Assembly (NCBI GenBank): GCA_016211955.1
Contig: JACRHX010000009.1
Span: 1 to 31,918, forward strand
From: Parcubacteria group bacterium
GTDB lineage: Bacteria > Patescibacteriota > Minisyncoccia > UBA6257 > JACRHW01
DNA: 31,918 nt
Reading direction: 5' to 3'
Shown: piece by piece, positions 4,904 to 31,918 of the stretch
Position numbering within the stretch: the stretch's first letter is position 1
Layout of the letters: each line of letters opens with the position of its first letter
Program-made: the position numbers and the translations under genes
The notes under the pieces: model-generated
Database searches by the model: none
The model's input: only the letters and a program-made list of their open reading frames with translations
Told to the model about the DNA's origin: nothing

Positions 4904-5122
4904 GTATTGAGTATCTAGTATTTTGTATCTGGTATAGCCTTCCCTCCGGAGGACTATTAATTTTGTCATTCTGAGGCATCAGACGAAGAATCTCTCGTTT
5001 TCAGAATTAGCAAAAATAAAGAGATCCTTCGTTGCACTCAGGATGACATGTTATTTTTAATGTTTAAACACATCCACCGTAGACGGATTAATACTAGCTA
5101 CTAGATACAAGATACTAAATAC
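4904..5122. repeat. GTAT/ATAC heptamer inverted array enclosing a REP-like doublet
   Basis: Left arm gtattga-gtatcta-gtatttt-gtatctg-gtat (4904-4934); right arm atactagct-actagat-acaagat-actaaat-ac (5091-5122). Confidence 0.8.
4965..5047. repeat. REP-like doublet (GTCATYCTGAG...GAAGRATCT family)
   Basis: gtcattctgagg...gaagaatctct / agagatccttcg...ctcaggatgac in inverted orientation; relatives at 7112 and 18050. Confidence 0.85.
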
Positions 5123-7104: not shown

Positions 7105-7111
7105 CTCACCT

Positions 7112-7196
7112 GTCATCCTGAGGCATCAGCCGAAGGATCTCGCAATTTCAGTACTAATCTGAAAACGAGAGATTCTTCATTGTTATTCAGAATGAC
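7112..7196. repeat. REP-like doublet
   Basis: gtcatcctgaggcatcagccgaaggatctc ... gagattcttc...ttcagaatgac; its spacer is related in reverse to that of the 4965 copy. Confidence 0.85.
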
Positions 7197-23480: not shown

Positions 23481-25037
23481 TTAGTGTAAAAAGGATTGAA
23501 TAAGTTGACCTGATACAGAATTCAAAAAATTTCCACGCTCGTAGGAGAGTACTCCGTTCACAAAAACCATGATAATACCTTCTGGATAATGAGCGGGTTC
23601 CTGAAAGGTGTTTTTTTCAGTTATCTGTGAAGGATCAAGTACAACAAGATCGGCATTATTCCCTATTTTAATAACACCTCGTTTTTTAAATCCATATTTT
23701 TCTGCAACAACCCCCGTAATCTTGTGAATCGCCTCTTCAAATGATATTTTTCTTTTTTCTCGCACTATACGAAGAAAACGAGGAAATGCGCCAAAAGAAC
23801 GTGGGTGGATTTTTGGACGATTTAAAACACCTATCTGGTCATAACCAACTCCGTGTGAACTAATACACGCGAGGGGATGAAAAAGAAGTTCATCATGAAG
23901 AACCTCATCGCTATCGGCAATGAAACCACCCACCTGATTTTCAGAAATTTGAAGTATTTTGAGCAATGCCTCACTAATACTTATGTTTTGATTTAAGGCA
24001 ACCTCATTGATACGCTTCCCATGAATAATCCACTGATTTTTCGCATAAGAAACCATAATCTCACCTATTTCTTTTTGTTGAGATCCAATATCATTTAATA
24101 TTTGTGCCCTTGTGTCGTCTGTCGCAAGATAACGCAAGAGCTGATCAAAACCACGCTGTACCGCCCACGTAGGTAATAATGTGAAAAGAGGTTTTACGCT
24201 TATGTGATAGGGGGAAATATCAAAATGAATAGAGACGTCGTGAGACGCTTGCTCGATATGTTCTAAACTTCTTCTAAAATCATCGGTCCTTGGAGTCGTA
24301 AGGTGAGTAATTTCTGTAATGAGATCATGTTCTTTTGCAAGAGAAATTACCTCTTTGACACCTGATTCAATCCCCTGCTCTCCCTTTGGATAACAATTAT
24401 AAACACCTTTCCTGTGAGCGATGCTTTTAGTAAGTTCGAAAAGTTCTTCAGTGCTTACATGAGATGCTCGACTATAGGCAAGACCGGTCGAAAACCCAAG
24501 TGCACCCTCCTTAAGACTCTGGTTAATAAGATAGACGAATTTCTTATACTCGTCCTTACCGAGAGGAATGAGAGAGTCTCCCATGAGCCCCCTTCGAATT
24601 GTCGAATGCCCCACGAGACTTCCAAAATTTATGCCAAATTTACGCGTGCGAAGCCACGTCATAAATTCAGCAAACGAACCCCAGTTGATATTTATCTGGT
24701 TAGGGTCAGCCCATTTTCGAAGCGAGAGAATACCATCTCCAAAGAGGGGTGCAAGCGAAGTCCCCGAATTCCCCCCAACAATAGAGGTTATTCCCTGTGC
24801 CAAAAGACTTTTCTGTCCAGGATCGCTAAACAACGTGAAATAGTGGTCTGAATCAACATTTACGTCAATAAAACCAGGAGTCACCGTAAGCCCAGCAAGA
24901 TCAAGCACCTTATCAGCCTTAACATTAGGAAATGAACCAATATCCGAAATTATGTTGTCCTTAATTAAAATATCAGACTGCGCCCCAGGCGTACCAGTAC
25001 CATCAACAAGAAAACAATTTCTAAGTAATATAAGCAT
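23481..25037 (-). CDS. D-aminoacylase-like amidohydrolase homologue with substituted metal ligands
   Basis: PGFID.., GALGFSTGL.Y, HPR..G.FPR.L, G.I..G..ADLVV.DP fold motifs; HxH appears as NVD and the catalytic Asp as His. Confidence 0.8.
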   Translation of the reverse strand: MLILLRNCFLVDGTGTPGAQSDILIKDNIISDIGSFPNVKADKVLDLAGLTVTPGFIDVNVDSDHYFTLFSDPGQKSLLAQGITSIVGGNSGTSLAPLFGDGILSLRKWADPNQININWGSFAEFMTWLRTRKFGINFGSLVGHSTIRRGLMGDSLIPLGKDEYKKFVYLINQSLKEGALGFSTGLAYSRASHVSTEELFELTKSIAHRKGVYNCYPKGEQGIESGVKEVISLAKEHDLITEITHLTTPRTDDFRRSLEHIEQASHDVSIHFDISPYHISVKPLFTLLPTWAVQRGFDQLLRYLATDDTRAQILNDIGSQQKEIGEIMVSYAKNQWIIHGKRINEVALNQNISISEALLKILQISENQVGGFIADSDEVLHDELLFHPLACISSHGVGYDQIGVLNRPKIHPRSFGAFPRFLRIVREKRKISFEEAIHKITGVVAEKYGFKKRGVIKIGNNADLVVLDPSQITEKNTFQEPAHYPEGIIMVFVNGVLSYERGNFLNSVSGQLIQSFLH

Positions 25038-25038
25038 A

Positions 25039-25153
25039 CCAGGTAGTAGAAATTCGACTGTTGTTATCGAATTCTATATTTAGAATTAATTACTATTTTG
25101 AATAAAAAAACCATCGTAGAAAAATATTCTCATGTCGAATTTTCACTACCTGG
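25039..25153. mobile_element. MITE family A copy 1 (115 bp)
   Basis: 20-bp imperfect TIR ccaggtagtagaaattcgac/gtcgaattttcactacctgg flanked by CATA at 25035-25038 and 25154-25157. Confidence 0.88.
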
Positions 25154-25214
25154 CATACCCAGTACCTTTATTATAACCTATTCCATGTCAAACAGTATCC
25201 ACAGGACAGCCCTG

Positions 25215-25242
25215 AAAAATAAAAAAGCCGAGATATCTCGGC
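25215..25242 (-). terminator. intrinsic terminator after the methyltransferase
   Basis: Perfect palindrome gccgagatatctcggc followed on the minus strand by ttttttatttt. Confidence 0.7.
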
Positions 25243-25258
25243 ATGTTGATATTAAATA

Positions 25259-25783
25259 TTACACCCTTCTCACGAACATGCATTTTAGTTGATTTATATA
25301 GTTACCCACCTCTTCTGATTCAAAAACAGAATCTTCGATTACCAAACCCTCTGTTTTTACCTCACCGAAATCAGAAAGAATGCTGAACATTTTATTATAT
25401 TTAACACTATCACTAACAAAAGTAACGACAACTAGCTCACCACCATCAGACACCAAGTTCCATGTTCTCCCAAGAAAGTCTTCGTATCTAGAAACATCTT
25501 TTGGCATTACCTGAGACAATAGAACAAGATCGTAGGTACCATGAACCTCAATAGACGGAAACACGCCTTCCAACACCCTAAGCCCATCTTTTCTCAGAGA
25601 ACCGGCCCTTTCTGGATCCGATTCAACAGCGACATAATCTTTAATGTTAGGCAAAAGAGAGAGACCTAAAAATGAATCACCCGCCCCAACATCGAGTAAT
25701 GACTTAGCGTGTTGTTCTTGTACGTGCCTTAAGATATGCTTGAATTTAAAACTATAAATTTGATCTGCTTCGACAAAAGACAT
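25259..25783 (-). CDS. class I SAM-dependent methyltransferase; ATG start 25783
   Basis: LLDVGAG motif I; AVE motif II; YDLVLLSQV; L..GG.LVV. Confidence 0.82.
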   Translation of the reverse strand: MSFVEADQIYSFKFKHILRHVQEQHAKSLLDVGAGDSFLGLSLLPNIKDYVAVESDPERAGSLRKDGLRVLEGVFPSIEVHGTYDLVLLSQVMPKDVSRYEDFLGRTWNLVSDGGELVVVTFVSDSVKYNKMFSILSDFGEVKTEGLVIEDSVFESEEVGNYINQLKCMFVRRV

Positions 25784-25850
25784 GAGCAAAAATACATTAA
25801 ATATATTTTAATAGATCCTCATACAACTCGCCGGGACTTCCTCGCTTGGT

Positions 25851-26915
25851 TTATGAATTAGAGGGAAATTTTTCTGATACTGAATTCCATAAACTATCGA
25901 TTTCTTCCTGCGACAAGACGTCTTTTGTGATTGATTTAAAAAGTTCTTCTGCCAAAGGGCGATCAATAAATTGATTCGGTCCACCCGAAGGACGTCCTCT
26001 TTGTTTCCATTTTTCATATAGTATCTTCGAAATCCTAATTGGAAAAATTACCAAAACGATATCATCAATTTTGTCTTCTTTAACAAGTTGCTCCTTTGAA
26101 AACGACACTTGTTGTTTCTTTCTCTCGACACGATGAACATTTGTAGTAAATTGAATTCCTATATTCTTTAGAACTCCACCCGTCTCGACACCAACCCTCC
26201 TTCTCTTTTCCTTCCGAGTCAAAATAAAATCTATTTTTTGTTCCACATCCTGATATGCATCGGCATCAGAAATTGAATAAGGTGCAGCGTTGTCCCACTG
26301 GAGTTTTTTAAAAATGTTTTTTACTATCCTCTCAGAAATAAATCCAGATCCTACTTTTTCAATATTTTCGTGAGACGCTTTTAATCCCGCATAAGCCGTT
26401 TTTAGACCCTCACGGACGCCTTCATTTTCAATAATTTGATTATCAAGAAGGCACTGAAGTCGGTATTTCGTCTTTTCTAAAAGATATCTTCTCTGTAATC
26501 CTCTGGGGACATTTGCATCAAATTGATAAAAAATACCCCACTCCAAATCTGTCAGCACATCACCAAACGAAGCAGTGCGTTTTTGACGACGATCATCCCA
26601 ATACAAAAATACATTTTCATTTACATCATATGTTGCTTGGCGTGTCAATTCTTTTTTTTCATAATGACACGCGGGATCATCTAGACACCTAAGCTCACTT
26701 CGCAACTCATCTATTATCTCCTGCTTTTCTTTTTGTATCGAAAAGATGTGTTCCTGGACCTCTTTTGGTGTATTTTGTTGTTTTGCTGCCCGCTCAATAT
26801 GCCAATCAATCACGATTTTAAGACGCTCTAGTGCTTCCCCTTCCTCCTCTACTTGTTTTTCCTCCTTTGCCAAGGCACTAAGGTCGTATAAATTTTTTTC
26901 AAAACTCTTTTTCAT
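25851..26915 (-). CDS. hypothetical protein; C-terminal half resembles a PD-(D/E)xK nuclease fold
   Basis: Helical N-terminus; G..SE..V ... QD.EQKIDFI ... GIQFT motif order. Confidence 0.6.
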   Translation of the reverse strand: MKKSFEKNLYDLSALAKEEKQVEEEGEALERLKIVIDWHIERAAKQQNTPKEVQEHIFSIQKEKQEIIDELRSELRCLDDPACHYEKKELTRQATYDVNENVFLYWDDRRQKRTASFGDVLTDLEWGIFYQFDANVPRGLQRRYLLEKTKYRLQCLLDNQIIENEGVREGLKTAYAGLKASHENIEKVGSGFISERIVKNIFKKLQWDNAAPYSISDADAYQDVEQKIDFILTRKEKRRRVGVETGGVLKNIGIQFTTNVHRVERKKQQVSFSKEQLVKEDKIDDIVLVIFPIRISKILYEKWKQRGRPSGGPNQFIDRPLAEELFKSITKDVLSQEEIDSLWNSVSEKFPSNS

Positions 26916-26923
26916 ATAAAAAA

Positions 26924-27967
26924 CTACTTGTACTTATCGAGGAAGAAAATGATAAGTCCTAAACTAGTGGTTATTCCCGAAACAATCCAAAATTTCATAG
27001 TGATATTTGTTTCTGGTAAGCCTAGCGCTTCAAAATGGTGATGAATGGGGGTGGAAAGAAAAACCTTTTTTCCACGAATTCTTTTACTTAATACCTGAAT
27101 AATCACAGACAATGACTCCAATACTAAAATCGAGGCAAAGAGTGGTAATAAAAGCGCTGTATTAGTAAGCATAGCAATAACCCCCAACACAATGCCCAAC
27201 GACATTGCCCCTGTATCCCCCATAAAAAAGCGGGCAGGGTAGATGTTGTTCCATAAAAAAGCGATAAGTGCACCAAGAAGCGTCGCAATAAACACGGCAA
27301 GATCATATTTATGATTTAAAAACGCTACCACCCCCAATGCAATAAAAGGGGAAACAAGCACCCCCGCTGCTAAGCCATCTAAGCCATCTGTTTCGTTGGT
27401 TGAAAAAGCGGTCGCAGTAAGTACAAAAATAAAAAGAGGGATATACCAAATTCCAATAGAGATATCTCTCCATAGGGGAATATGAATAATGTTCCAATCA
27501 AGACGAAAATAAAACCAAAGGGCGCCAAGTGTAGCAACAAGAATATATAACAATAGCTTTCCTTTCATACTTAGCCCACCCCCCCTAGGTCCTAAGTGTA
27601 AAACCCCTAGCACGTCGTCTACTAAACCAATGAACGCTGCGATACATAATGCAGCAAGAGGAAGATAGGTCTCACCACGATTAATGAAATTAAGCTGAGA
27701 AAACACCCCACCAAAAAATTTATCACCAAAAAACATAACAGTTGCAATACTTAGTATAGTAAACCAAATTACAATACCACCCATGGTAGGGGTACCCTCT
27801 TTTTTCTTATGGAGCCCAGCAAACACTGGGGTATCTTTTTCTGAACGTATCTGTTTGCCAAGTTGATACTTCTTCAAAAGATAAAGAAGGGGTGTCGAAA
27901 GAAGTATTGCAATAAGAAAAGAGAGGGTGCCAAGCGAGAGAAAACGAATAGCTTGTGTGACGATCAT
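26924..27967 (-). CDS. mraY: phospho-N-acetylmuramoyl-pentapeptide transferase
   Basis: K.GTPTMGG; G..DD; N.TDGLDGL; N.YPA..FMGDTG; P.HHHFE..G..E..I..KFW. Confidence 0.97.
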   Translation of the reverse strand: MIVTQAIRFLSLGTLSFLIAILLSTPLLYLLKKYQLGKQIRSEKDTPVFAGLHKKKEGTPTMGGIVIWFTILSIATVMFFGDKFFGGVFSQLNFINRGETYLPLAALCIAAFIGLVDDVLGVLHLGPRGGGLSMKGKLLLYILVATLGALWFYFRLDWNIIHIPLWRDISIGIWYIPLFIFVLTATAFSTNETDGLDGLAAGVLVSPFIALGVVAFLNHKYDLAVFIATLLGALIAFLWNNIYPARFFMGDTGAMSLGIVLGVIAMLTNTALLLPLFASILVLESLSVIIQVLSKRIRGKKVFLSTPIHHHFEALGLPETNITMKFWIVSGITTSLGLIIFFLDKYK

Positions 27968-28005
27968 AATTGGAGGTGTAGCTTTTAGAAATTAGTTTAA
28001 GTAAT

Positions 28006-28169
28006 TTTGAATCACAACATGTATATTTCGAACCGTTCCGTAGGCGCGGAGCAGGGTACTGTCAATCCCGAATTGAAAATGAGTTGGATTGACAACGAAG
28101 CGCCTGCGGACGAGTGAGGATACCGCTGGGTATCCGAATGGGTGAGAAATATACATGTTGTGATTCAAA
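28006..28169. mobile_element. 164-bp multibranched palindromic element with a perfect 24-bp TIR
   Basis: tttgaatcacaacatgtatatttc/gaaatatacatgttgtgattcaaa; inner stems ccgtaggcgc/gcgcctgcgg, tgtcaatcc/ggattgaca and ggatacc/ggtatcc. Confidence 0.8.
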
Positions 28170-28177
28170 GCCCATAC

Positions 28178-29245
28178 CTATTTAAACACGTAGGCACGCT
28201 TAGTCCATTGTAATAACGCCTCAACATCCTTAAATCGATCAGTGGATCCCAATAGAATAATAGAAATAGTATGATTGTTATGCTCAAAAAGCGCAACAAT
28301 ATTCTGCCCCGATTCATCAATAGTACCTGTCTTCCCTCCCAAAAAACCAAGTTCTGGATGAAGAGCAAGATAATCAATATTAACAAGCTTGTGTTTCTTT
28401 GATGCAGAAGAGATAACAACTTCACGTGCTTTTGTCATATGAAACAGTTCTGGGTGCACACGATATATGTATTGTACTATACTCTTAAGCTCGCGGGGAG
28501 TAGAAACATTCTGTGGGGAAAGACCCGTCACTTCTTCGATATGTGAACGAGAGAGTCCTAGTCCCGTTATTATACTTCGCATACGTACAAGAAGCTTAGA
28601 ACCAAGCTCTTCCTCAATTGCTTTAGCGGCATCATTTGAAGAAACGAGAAGCATTAGCTGTACGAGATTATCGAGATAGAATTTTTCTCCTACCACAAGA
28701 TTACCACTACTACCTTCTATACCAACTGCCTCCTTACTAATAATGATGGGTTGTTTTGGAGTACTTATCTCTTCCGCTGCGGCAGCAGTAAGGAGTTTTG
28801 TGACTGAAGCAATAGGCCACACAAGATCTTGGTTTTTTGCAAACAAATCTACCTGCGTAGTAAGGTCTGTAATGAGTACAGCATAAGCCCCCACCTCAAT
28901 ATCGGGCACATCAAAATTACTAATAAGCGCGGTGAGTGGTTGATGAGAAACACTTAGGTGTGGTTGTTCCAAGTCCCCCATCGTACGATATCTACCAGAT
29001 ATGATATCTTTCGAATTTACCGGTGATACACTTTTCTGCTCCACCACTTTTATCCGTGTAGAAAGCATCGTACTATACGAAAACCATCCTATTCCCAATG
29101 CTCCAAAAGTAAGCGCAAATAATCCCCACGAAGAAAAATAAGCGCGATGACCCATATCGGATGTTACTCCTCTATCTTCTTCCTCGCCCTTATGTACTAT
29201 TTGTTCTTCAACATATGTTTCTTGAACCAACTCCTCTGTCTCCAT
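28178..29245 (-). CDS. S11 family D-alanyl-D-alanine carboxypeptidase with N-terminal TM anchor
   Basis: IASVTK (SxxK), SSND (SxN) and GGKTG (KTG) motifs are all intact. Confidence 0.92.
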   Translation of the reverse strand: METEELVQETYVEEQIVHKGEEEDRGVTSDMGHRAYFSSWGLFALTFGALGIGWFSYSTMLSTRIKVVEQKSVSPVNSKDIISGRYRTMGDLEQPHLSVSHQPLTALISNFDVPDIEVGAYAVLITDLTTQVDLFAKNQDLVWPIASVTKLLTAAAAEEISTPKQPIIISKEAVGIEGSSGNLVVGEKFYLDNLVQLMLLVSSNDAAKAIEEELGSKLLVRMRSIITGLGLSRSHIEEVTGLSPQNVSTPRELKSIVQYIYRVHPELFHMTKAREVVISSASKKHKLVNIDYLALHPELGFLGGKTGTIDESGQNIVALFEHNNHTISIILLGSTDRFKDVEALLQWTKRAYVFK

Positions 29246-29246
29246 A

Positions 29247-29384
29247 CCGGGTAGTAGAAAGTCGACTTTCGCAAAAAGCGAATTAATCAGCCTTTCCTAA
29301 AAAAATAATAATGTTTTTTGCGCCCATCGTTTTAGTTACGCCCAACAATGAAATTGACCATACTGTCGACTTTTCACTACCTGG
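29247..29384. mobile_element. MITE family A copy 2 (138 bp)
   Basis: TIR ccgggtagtagaaagtcgac/gtcgacttttcactacctgg flanked by CATA at 29243-29246 and 29385-29388. Confidence 0.9.
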
Positions 29385-29407
29385 CATACTAGGTAACAAA
29401 AAAATTA

Positions 29408-29947
29408 TTATTTCTGCGAATAGCTTTTATGAATATTTACCAATCGTTCCTTGAAATCATTGTACGCAGGAAGGTGTTCCCTGCTTGTAATCCCTAAATA
29501 TCTCAATGTATCAAAGGTAATATCATAAAGAGAACCTCCCCCCTCCCAATCTCTCTTCTCTATAAGTCCACGAATCGAAAGGCTTTTAAGAGTAAAGTAC
29601 GAATTCACCCCCCTCATCTCATCTATATCAACTTTTGCAATAGGGCCAAGATAAGCAATAATCGAAAGTGTCTCGAGGCTCGATTGAGTAAGGGGCTCTT
29701 CTAGGTTTTTTGCAATAATATCTTTGAGTACATCTGAAACGTCTGGGTGTGTTGAAAAAGAAAAATTGCCTCCATGGGCAAGGAGCACCACCCCCCTCTC
29801 CCGATACTCCTCCTTAAGCTCGTCGAGAATACGAAGCACTTCGTCTTCTTTTATTTTCACCATCTTTGCGATCTCACGAGAAGAAAGCGGCTCGCCGTGC
29901 ACAAAAAGAAGTGCTTCTATGCTCTTTTTACGCAATAAATCCTCCAT
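29408..29947 (-). CDS. scpB: SMC-Scp complex subunit ScpB; true start ATG 29947
   Basis: IEALLFV.GEPL; L..SSLETLSIIAY..P......I.E.RGVNS; L..L..RGLI. Confidence 0.94.
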   Translation of the reverse strand: MEDLLRKKSIEALLFVHGEPLSSREIAKMVKIKEDEVLRILDELKEEYRERGVVLLAHGGNFSFSTHPDVSDVLKDIIAKNLEEPLTQSSLETLSIIAYLGPIAKVDIDEMRGVNSYFTLKSLSIRGLIEKRDWEGGGSLYDITFDTLRYLGITSREHLPAYNDFKERLVNIHKSYSQK

Positions 29948-29948
29948 A

Positions 29949-30207
29949 CCGGGTAGTAGAAAGTCGACTTTCGCAAAAAGCGAATTGGTCAACCTTTCTT
30001 AAAAAAATAATAATGTTTTTGCACCCATCATTTTAGTTACGCCCAACAATGAAATTGACCATACTGTCGACTTTTCACGGCGCTGTTCGATAATCTCATA
30101 ATTACTAGTGCCTGAGCCTGTCGAAGGCCTACATTTCTTTAAGGAAACCCTTCGACTTTGCTCAGGGAATATCATGTTTCCGAACAGCGCCACTTTTCAC
30201 TACCTGG
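29949..30207. mobile_element. MITE family A copy 3 (137 bp plus nested insertion)
   Basis: Seven differences from copy 2 outside the insertion; flanked by CATA at 29945-29948 and 30208-30211. Confidence 0.9.
30079..30191. mobile_element. MITE family B (113 bp) nested in family A copy 3
   Basis: Perfect 11-bp TIR ggcgctgttcg/cgaacagcgcc; 9-bp duplication acttttcac at 30070-30078 and 30192-30200. The site is single-copy in copy 2. Confidence 0.9.
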
Positions 30208-30262
30208 CATAGAGTTTTAAAAAATTATACGTTATTTATAACACATTGTCACTCGTGAATAT

Positions 30263-30943
30263 CTACCTCTTACCGACAGTGATACCACCAAACCCCTCCT
30301 CCTGTGTTGGTGTCACAACCCCCGCCTTCATAAGTTCAAGAAGGGCGAGAAAAAGTACTATTATCTCAATCCTCTCCTTCTCCCTAAAAAGTTCGTTAAA
30401 TTGAAAATGTAACCCCGACTCCAACCGTTTTAGAATATCCCCCACCTTTTCTTCAATCCGCACAATCCTTCGTTCGACTCTTGATGAAACATGCGGTGTA
30501 TTCAATACAAAAAAATGAGAAAGGCTTTTTTCAAGGAAAGAGAGGGTAAGATTGGGTCCAGGAAGAAATTCAGGCGCACACCCTTCAAAATACCCTCTTC
30601 CAAACATGAGATGTGCTAGGTATGTTTCAGCAAGAAGCTTGCTAACACGCTTAATCTCTCTGTATAGTTGCAACTGCAACTCTAAATTACCCTCCTCCTC
30701 TTCCTCAATGGGAGTAAGTTTTGGGAGAATTTCTCGCGACTTAATAAAAATGAGACGAGCCGCCACCACTAAAAAATCTCCAATTTCAGCATAATTTTTC
30801 TCCTGAAGTTGGCGCACATAAGCCAAAAAATCAGCAGTAATCTGAGAAATGCTCAACTCCGTAATTTCAAGTTTCTTCCCCTCAATCATCGAAAGAAGCA
30901 TATCAAATGGCCCATTAAATTTTTCCTGTGTCACCTGAAACAT
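30263..30943 (-). CDS. scpA: segregation and condensation protein A
   Basis: F.GPFD.LL.MI...KL.I..LSI..IT..F; FL..AA.LI.IKS..LP; IIV.FLALLEL.K. Confidence 0.95.
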   Translation of the reverse strand: MFQVTQEKFNGPFDMLLSMIEGKKLEITELSISQITADFLAYVRQLQEKNYAEIGDFLVVAARLIFIKSREILPKLTPIEEEEEGNLELQLQLYREIKRVSKLLAETYLAHLMFGRGYFEGCAPEFLPGPNLTLSFLEKSLSHFFVLNTPHVSSRVERRIVRIEEKVGDILKRLESGLHFQFNELFREKERIEIIVLFLALLELMKAGVVTPTQEEGFGGITVGKR

Positions 30944-31018
30944 AATACTATCAGAATATCACGTGGCATTCGTTTTTAAAAACAAAAAACGAGAGGTTGC
31001 CCTCTCGCGTAGATTTAC

Positions 31019-31918
31019 CTACAAAAATACACACATCTGTTTAATTGCATTTTCGATTCCCGCACCTATCTCGTCATTAGAAAGAAATACATAAGGAATA
31101 TCCGATTTTAACGCCTCCGCATCCCACTGTCTGCAATCGTCGATACGCCCTTGAATCATCCCCTCATCATCGCCTCGAGCACGAAGACGTCTTCGTAATT
31201 CGTCTTCCGGGGGTGAGAGCACATAAAAAGAGACAATGTTCCGTTCATGATTTTCAAACTGCTTGAGATAGATATGGAGAAGTGATACCGCCTCAGGAAC
31301 AAGAATCATGCATTGTGGACCAAAAGATCTATGAAAAACAAAAGCCTCTAAAACCGCTTTTTTGGGAGTAGCATAATAATTTCCGTGAGCAGGAAGCACC
31401 CATAAAAAATCTTCAGCATGTTTCTCAAATCGTTCTCTCGGCATCTCACATTCATATTCACCAGAAAGATCGGTCATCCTTGCAGGGCGTGTAGTAAGGC
31501 TTGTAACGAGCTTCGTACCGGGTCTTAGCTCTATTACTCTTCTTACGAGCGTGCTCTTACCTACTCCTGAAGCGCCTGTCAGGGTAACAATCATCGGTTG
31601 TATCACTTTTTCATATCCAGGAAGAACCCTGTATTCAATAGGCTGTCTAAACTCAACAGTTTTTCGAACACCAAGGTACATCCCCTTCGACATACCTCTG
31701 TTTATATACACAACAGTTGCGTCGGATCTCTTCTTCCAAGCAAATCCCGCCTCAATTCCCAACATTCTTTCTTCAGGAATCTTATCATCGAGAACTCCTT
31801 CTTGTGTGTAGAGAAGGTGGCTCGCAAAGGGCGCTTCGCCATGCAAAAGACAATCGTGCATACACAATCGTGCAAATCGTATATTTTCCTCAGTAGCTTC
31901 ATAATTATTTCCCTTATA
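31019..31918 (-). CDS. fusion of an N-terminal NDT-fold/DUF7768-like domain and a guanylate-kinase-like domain; 5'-truncated by the window edge
   Basis: The frame stays open to the window end (...YEATEENIRFARLCMHDCLLHGEAPFASHLLYTQ.GVLDD..PEER.LGIEAG.AW....DATVVY..RG.S.GM), then TGASGVGKST, S.TTR..R, GNYY, PP..EL.RRL..RG. Confidence 0.85.
   Translation of the reverse strand, partial: YKGNNYEATEENIRFARLCMHDCLLHGEAPFASHLLYTQEGVLDDKIPEERMLGIEAGFAWKKRSDATVVYINRGMSKGMYLGVRKTVEFRQPIEYRVLPGYEKVIQPMIVTLTGASGVGKSTLVRRVIELRPGTKLVTSLTTRPARMTDLSGEYECEMPRERFEKHAEDFLWVLPAHGNYYATPKKAVLEAFVFHRSFGPQCMILVPEAVSLLHIYLKQFENHERNIVSFYVLSPPEDELRRRLRARGDDEGMIQGRIDDCRQWDAEALKSDIPYVFLSNDEIGAGIENAIKQMCVFL

Follow-up and report, generated by a model that had tools for sequence, protein, structure and literature searches.

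Miniature inverted-end elements at the start codons of Parcubacteria genes and their relatives with a tiny GIY-YIG nuclease gene

The stretch of DNA analysed here (the window) is a contig of 31,918 nucleotides from a Parcubacteria group bacterium, in which three short elements with inverted ends sit exactly on the start codons of three genes, encoding an amidohydrolase, a D-alanyl-D-alanine carboxypeptidase and ScpB. The elements are probably non-autonomous copies, or MITEs (miniature transposable elements with inverted repeats), of a family widespread among Parcubacteria with a tiny full-length form that carries a GIY-YIG nuclease gene and takes over the promoter and the ATG of its host gene. 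They have inverted ends and a target duplication with a matching empty site, they are small and multi-copy and lack a gene for transposition, and a longer coding element shares their ends. Their position on the start codon is a property of the family and not a product of survivorship.

The genome to which the window belongs (G000, in which the window is contig C49) comes from groundwater and comprises 0.70 Mb in 67 contigs, with 41.8% GC and 84% completeness. It was compared with two congeners, G001 and G002, which are syntenic with the window at 70-85% DNA identity, and with other Parcubacteria; all of the genomes compared are metagenome-assembled genomes (MAGs). In what follows, the gene-proximal inverted end of an element is called the A end and the distal inverted end the B end.

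The copies in the window were located by direct reading of positions 24700-30500 and by repeat finding (families D7/D8). Both bear out the description in an earlier, sequence-only reading of this DNA, namely three elements with inverted ends of about 20 bp and with CATA on both sides. All three, with their host genes, lie on the minus strand, so that CATA reads TATG on the gene strand. Copy 1 (25039..25153, 115 bp) has its A end at 25039, toward the amidohydrolase gene, and its B end at 25153. The gene-proximal CATA (25035..25038) contains the start codon (CAT at 25035-25037) of this host gene (23481..25037), which encodes 518 aa of the amidohydrolase family (Amidohydro_3, PF07969, E = 1e-16). 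Copy 2 (29247..29384, 138 bp) directs its A end toward the carboxypeptidase gene (28178..29245, 355 aa; Peptidase_S11, PF00768, E = 3.7e-27), whose start codon (CAT at 29243-29245) lies in the gene-proximal CATA at 29243..29246; the distal CATA (29385..29388) is 19 nt past the scpB stop. Copy 3 (29949..30207) has its A end toward scpB (29408..29947, 179 aa; SMC_ScpB, PF04079, E = 1e-39), with the start codon (CAT at 29945-29947) in the gene-proximal CATA at 29945..29948 and the distal CATA at 30208..30211. Its length of 259 bp is explained by a second element nested inside it; outside this insert it is nearly identical to copy 2 (87-95% by repeat finding, D4/D5).

Read from the outside inward, the A end is CC(A/G)GGTAGTAGAAA(G/T)TCGAC in the three window copies (also read as CCNGGTAGTAGAAANTCGAC) and the B end is CCAGGTAGTGAAAA(G/T)TCGAC (also read as CCNGGTAGTGAAAANTCGAC). 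Copy 1 does carry the paired G/T change in its two ends that had been pointed out before. In every copy inspected the inverted arms of about 20 bp differ at two fixed positions (AG in one end, GA in the other). On the distal side, the displaced ATG opens a short upstream open reading frame (uORF) that starts MPGSE(N/K)..., as the earlier reading had also proposed: MPGSENST* in copy 1 (distal CATA at 25154..25157, uORF from 25156 down to 25130), a 34-aa frame in copy 2 (29387 down to 29283) and MPGSEKWRCSET* in copy 3. The distal TATG of copy 3 is closely preceded by a promoter-like site, GTGACA-17-TATAAT (11/12; 30224..30252, minus strand), which is probably the native scpB promoter, now reading into the element; its TATAAT recurs in the empty alleles.

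The empty alleles identify the four bases as a true target duplication and the ATG as the native start codon. In G002 all three corresponding start codons carry a single CATA and no element, and no family copy was found in this genome under the two search patterns used. In G001 the scpB site is likewise empty with a single CATA, while the amidohydrolase site holds a different family member. The gene-proximal copy of the duplication thus carries the ATG, which leaves the host open reading frame (ORF) intact in 3/3 cases, and the distal copy remains behind the host promoter and a short leader and reads into the B end. In the empty alleles of scpB and the amidohydrolase gene a TATAAT lies 13 nt before the ATG. 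Assembled contigs of a groundwater metagenome contain many further copies with the same ends and CATA flanks, one form having 269 letters between the ends; for the window's own sites no empty allele was present among these contigs, a negative that carries no weight.

The association with start codons extends well beyond the window. The paired copies in G000 number 22 and measure 113-259 bp; without the nested copy 3 the range is 113-138 bp. Of these, 19 sit on the ATG of ORFs of 65-825 aa, 17 with the A end toward the gene and 2 (rpsT and leuS) reversed. A 23rd copy (C34:831-1083), itself with a nested insert, lies on the start codon of the L25 gene, bringing the total to 20/23; the copies off start codons comprise two flanked by TATG and one flanked by CAAT. 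Start codons account for 14/21 copies in G001, all with the A end toward the gene, and the other seven have duplications such as TCAA, CCTA, TTTG, TTTGA and TCTAA. A sample of 401 genomes from the order contained ends of the family in 50. Among elements of other Parcubacteria, for which our counts are lower bounds since some loci were truncated, at least 31/63 occupy start codons; of these, 27 have the A end toward the gene, 2 are reversed and 2 have an orientation not assigned. The start-codon duplications in these genomes include CATG, AATG and GATG, which indicates that the ATG is the constant part and TATG merely its commonest form. TATG is not supported as a strict target, CAAT and the other non-TATG duplications occurring off start codons. 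The single orientation noted in the sequence-only reading stands as a strong preference, with a pooled orientation of 58:4 for the A end toward the gene, but not as a rule, given the reversed rpsT and leuS copies. Essential genes are among the targets (leuS, alaS, rpsT, rplE, recA and dnaX).

Short members of the family, about 60-125 bp long and flanked by TCAA/TTGA or TATA(A), were also seen in other Parcubacteria (L048 = G328:C8, L052, L045, L057, L117 and L129). In these the TCAA/TTGA falls in TTGACA-like hexamers and the TATA(A) in TATAAT-like hexamers, and the duplication rebuilds a promoter-like hexamer on one side.

Such a distribution could in principle arise if the elements inserted at any TATG and only insertions at start codons escaped purifying selection. 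Insertions within ORFs would certainly be eliminated, the genome is compact, and a T precedes the ATG in 51% of genes, making start codons a sizeable share of the tolerated TATGs. To put a number on this share we used a crude ORF-based gene model of G000 with the elements removed, which counts 328 TATGs at start codons and 1280 that lie entirely outside genes. Start codons are then expected to make up about 0.20 of the sites, whereas among the TATG-flanked copies of G000 and G001 they make up 33/37 (0.89; p ~5e-19, and still 5e-7 against a null of 0.5). As a control, three other hairpin repeat families of G000 (19, 5 and 8 copies; 114-166 bp; intergenic) abut a start codon in 1/32 cases only, compared with 19/22 for the family studied here (Fisher p = 1.5e-10). 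What is more, G000 and G001 both have elements on the start codons of leuS, rpsT and the amidohydrolase gene, and the interiors of these elements are unrelated: they are about 0.55-0.6 identical, no better than a reverse-complement control, versus 0.78-0.87 in the flanks, and two of the pairs are in opposite orientation. Unrelated interiors and opposite orientations mean that the same nucleotide was hit independently in sister species. Finally, a sister subfamily with GGAAGT ends occupies A4/T4 tracts instead of start codons. Survivorship as the sole cause is thus very improbable, and the targeting of start codons, which the sequence-only reading had weighed against it, would account for the data.

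With regard to what is recognised at the start codon, the only signals are marginal: no T at +4 and an A at +8 (A of ATG being +1). There is a modest genome-wide peak of TAnnnT at 6-8 nt before the ATG (also at 12-13 nt), and this motif is present at 9/27 insertion sites. We considered targeting of transcription start sites or open-complex bubbles as a general rule and rejected it, as five sites, those of rplE and ndk among them, come 3-38 nt past the stop of an upstream gene that runs in the same direction.

The same ends also enclose longer, coding elements. Full-length members of 297-324 bp, each with a single ORF for a GIY-YIG protein of about 90 aa (87-91 aa), were found in at least nine genomes. 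The element at L106:1819-2137, in a Komeilibacteria MAG, is 319 bp long and has one ORF of 91 aa that matches PF01541 with E = 1.8e-14; more full-length copies, also of 297-324 bp, are present in the congener G001 (C69; L178:1476-1792), in G392, G386, G119, G136 and G089, and in others. Start codons hold six or seven of about ten full-length copies, including those of recO, dnaX and recA. The nuclease ORF reads from the B end to the A end, in the same direction as the host gene, begins 20-30 nt past the displaced ATG of the host and terminates 15-21 nt short of the end of the element, some 20 nt ahead of the host ATG. In G386 and G119 the nuclease frame is open from the host ATG (MPGSENSTAIMFYY...), and in L106 the stop of a short uORF overlaps the nuclease ATG (ATGA). 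Homologous GIY-YIG ORFs of the same size lie within at least four sister families whose ends differ (for example CCCGGTGCTACAACTTTAAT); these families are TATG-flanked as well, and their ORFs are often open from that ATG (MPRATTST..., MPSNTTSS...).

Ten nuclease proteins of the family are 56-71% identical to each other, with Y6, Y17, G19, R27, H31, N32 and E63 invariant, so that the catalytic Tyr, Tyr, Arg and Glu of the GIY-YIG domain (Y6, Y17, R27 and E63) are all present. The fold is predicted with a pLDDT of 91 and most closely resembles UPF0213 and the Slx1 nuclease domain (TM 0.55-0.68), with I-TevI and UvrC far behind. Judging from the alignment and the model, the nuclease looks functional, and its ORF is under purifying selection. 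Its similarity follows the type of inverted end. Genes for nucleases of the family type co-occur with high MITE counts (4/7 versus 3/144 in the first 151 genomes, p = 5.6e-5, a value inflated by kinship).

How these elements might use a start codon can be pictured as follows. An element without expression signals of its own would, by landing on a start codon, borrow the promoter and the ATG of the host. Its B end would then be placed behind the host promoter, a short leader and the ATG, and the host gene would become the second cistron. The MITEs would be moved in trans by the same nuclease, from which they would inherit the preference for site and orientation. The start contexts of G000 fit this picture: GGAGG precedes only 5.6% of genes, a T stands before the ATG in 51% of long ORFs, and TATAAT is found 13 nt before the ATG in the empty alleles. 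These contexts suggest that leaders are very short or missing and that translation starts without the help of Shine-Dalgarno sites.

Transcripts of the MITEs are predicted to fold into long hairpins (-37.8 kcal/mol, z -7.2 for copy 1; -46.5 kcal/mol, z -4.8 for copy 2) that would bury both AUGs. Such a hairpin would be melted, and the host AUG freed, when the uORF (MPGSENST...) is translated across the 5' arm. The uORFs of the MITEs end mostly 40-75 nt ahead of the host ATG; a stop positioned for tight coupling was considered and rejected, as an overlap with the host ATG is not fixed. A scan of positions 24000-31918 with Rfam covariance models gave no match up to E = 1.

A further-reaching proposal, which we make tentatively and hold to be possible, is that the family represents a new class of prokaryotic transposable element, with an autonomous form of about 300 bp in which a bare, 90-aa Slx1-like GIY-YIG nuclease, in place of a DDE, HUH, serine or tyrosine enzyme, drives cut-and-paste transposition and inserts directionally into start codons. 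A possible mechanism would be staggered 4-nt cuts at the element boundary and at the target. Because TATG is asymmetric, cuts of this kind would account for the near-fixed orientation.

A number of points weigh against these readings. We know of no GIY-YIG nuclease that catalyses transposition with inverted ends and target duplications, and a duplication of 4-5 bp is the classic mark of DDE transposases. No full-length copy was found in G000, which is 84% complete and whose six small GIY-YIG genes all have other ends, and the interiors of the MITEs are very diverse and not clearly derived from the nuclease gene by deletion. Several full-length copies have the nuclease ORF in another frame than the host ATG, with an ATG of its own, and capture of a start codon is thus not obligatory. 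At L194 (G089:C65:1454-1720 region) the AG/GA asymmetry of the ends is reversed relative to the nuclease ORF, so the asymmetry is not strictly tied to coding direction. No extended target motif was found that separates start-codon TATGs from others. The gene models rest on ORF length, with no gene caller, and related genomes are not independent samples.

The first two of these points lead to a more conventional explanation, that the elements are ordinary DDE-type MITEs, IS1380-like or of another family with 4-5-bp duplications, which are mobilised in trans by a transposase not found here, the GIY-YIG gene being a passenger or a nested selfish gene. Ends that start with CC and duplications of 4-5 bp, including the variable, non-TATG ones at sites other than start codons, fit DDE chemistry, and MAG assemblies often lose transposase genes. 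Yet for about 200 ends in about 50 genomes every partner end was within 60-320 bp, leaving no element the size of a transposase. Twenty of these ends, which seemed solitary, were followed to 3 kb, and each turned out to be paired within 60-290 bp. Among the ends followed, no element longer than 324 bp and none carrying a DDE gene had ends of the family. The nuclease ORF fills its element from end to end and is under purifying selection, and the at least four sister families with other ends enclose a homologous ORF of the same size, protein identity following the type of end. We therefore regard a DDE origin as unlikely, and the tentative IS1380-type assignment of the sequence-only reading was not upheld, the only longer forms with these ends being those with the GIY-YIG gene of about 90 aa.

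A different view would be that the elements benefit the host, or are at least selected, as a mobile regulatory cassette that supplies a portable promoter or a translational-control hairpin, with the orientation kept by selection and not by targeted insertion. The orientation bias of 58:4 could be read in this way, and many of the targets are housekeeping genes. In addition, a semi-conserved GG..TAtAaTAAAA is found about 40-50 nt from the B end in about 12/42 copies, and a small covarying hairpin lies beside the A arm. An outward promoter inside the elements was rejected, however, since -10-like motifs are as frequent on one strand of the AT-rich interiors as on the other and a consensus scan of the three window copies yielded no promoter on their gene strand. 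Selection cannot account for the nucleotide-exact register, and the bias in orientation results as well from the direction in which the nuclease ORF of the full-length copies runs. A regulatory cassette is accordingly quite improbable as the explanation, and we return to a mobile family with a nuclease gene, of which the window elements are probably the MITEs.

Several other repeats were observed alongside the family. The element nested in the B arm of copy 3 (30079..30191, 113 bp, strand unassigned) is an unrelated MITE with ends GGCGCTGTTCG...CGAACAGCGCC and a 9-bp duplication, ACTTTTCAC, at 30070-30078 and 30192-30200. Its family has 19 copies in G000 with 86-100% identity (at least 94% for 18 copies), among them C56:17344-17457 and C4:2273-2386, and it is also present in G001 and G002; one copy, at C15:16618-16731, adjoins another copy of the start-codon family. 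The high identity makes the nested family look recently active. Of its 19 copies in G000, 18 do not abut a start codon. Positions 28005-28170 of the window, between the carboxypeptidase stop and the mraY start, hold an element of 166 bp with inverted arms of 29 bp, of which both congeners have dozens of copies at 75-92% identity; the contig depth of this element in the source metagenome is about 25 times that of its flanks.

The sister subfamily with GGAAGT ends consists in G000 of elements of about 70 bp with ends CCAGGAAGT(AG/GA)AATTTGGAC, which show the same AG/GA asymmetry and are flanked by AAAA/TTTT tracts and not by start codons (C22:1105-1176, C30:4139-4209, C40:9072-9140, C50:2109-2178, C67:10565-10633 and C12:3325-3409). 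A full-length GIY-YIG element with GGAAGT ends is present in G119 (L212). Small GIY-YIG genes of G000 are enclosed by inverted repeats of their own at C37:2821-3098, C37:7223-7576 and C18:8338-8689 (ATCCCGTTAGAGAT; TGTCATTCCCGCGAAGGCGGGAATC; TTTGTCATCCTGA). Arms of the TGTCATCCTGAGG type are found also at positions 4964-5048 and 7111-7178 of the window, and the family copy C34:831-1083 has an element of this type nested within it.

Comparison with known systems shows partial likenesses. Like the Correia/CREE elements of Neisseria, the MITEs described here are short, non-coding and multi-copy, with inverted ends, target duplications and co-transcribed hairpins. Correia elements, however, duplicate TA, occupy variable intergenic positions and are without a known autonomous partner of this kind, whereas the elements here duplicate 4 bp that are the start codon, have a near-fixed orientation and have a GIY-YIG partner. 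With the IS1380 family they share ends that start with CC and duplications of 4-5 bp, features that are common to other families and so do not discriminate; they differ in that no DDE transposase with these ends was found in the genomes examined and in that the coding form of about 300 bp has a GIY-YIG gene. The palindrome-associated elements derived from IS200/IS605 lack inverted ends and a duplication and insert 3' of a fixed tetranucleotide, in contrast to the inverted ends and the site-varying direct repeats seen here.

As for the nuclease, the proteins closest to it in sequence and fold are Slx1 and UPF0213 (YhbQ-like), and it conserves the catalytic Tyr, Tyr, Arg, His and Glu. Slx1 cuts branched DNA, an activity that would suit the hairpin-forming ends of these elements. 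It is, however, a cellular repair enzyme that has a RING domain and needs Slx4, while the element gene is bounded by inverted repeats and multi-copy; UPF0213 proteins are not known from a mobile context. GIY-YIG homing genes, free-standing or borne in introns (I-TevI, T4 Seg), resemble the elements in being selfish GIY-YIG genes between or in front of host genes, but the homing enzymes have an extended DNA-binding domain and place copies of themselves at a single cognate site through homologous repair. In the elements we found a bare catalytic domain of 87-91 aa, inverted ends and duplications, and dozens of unrelated target genes.

Repeats at gene junctions that spare host translation or mRNA are known from mycobacterial interspersed repetitive units (MIRUs), whose mini-ORFs overlap the flanking stop and start codons, and from IStrons, which splice out. 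MIRUs consist of direct repeats in tandem and lack inverted ends, IStrons are chimeras of a ribozyme and IS605, and neither duplicates a start codon. Ty3, which inserts at RNA polymerase III start sites, is a conceptual analogue only, as a mobile element placed with nucleotide precision at a site of initiation; it is a eukaryotic retrotransposon guided by transcription factors, whereas several of the targets here are operon-internal start codons without a nearby promoter. None of these analogues combines inverted ends, duplication of the start codon and an autonomous form with a nuclease only. Full-text literature searches turned up no description of start-codon MITEs in the candidate phyla radiation (CPR), to which Parcubacteria belong, or of GIY-YIG elements with inverted ends, an absence that is not proof. 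Taken together, the results suggest a tiny transposon, apparently of an undescribed kind, that exploits the start codons of its host.

On the practical side, the elements break MAG assemblies and can mislead the calling of start codons in Parcubacteria. If our reading is correct, they would constitute a type of mobile element built on a nuclease family that is not known to transpose DNA, and possibly the smallest autonomous transposon. They would also exemplify a new parasitic strategy, that of inserting into a start codon and becoming the first cistron. The finding bears on the start of translation in the CPR: G000 has almost no Shine-Dalgarno sites and its promoters lie a few bases from start codons, and yet essential genes tolerate a hairpin of 130 nt before their AUG.

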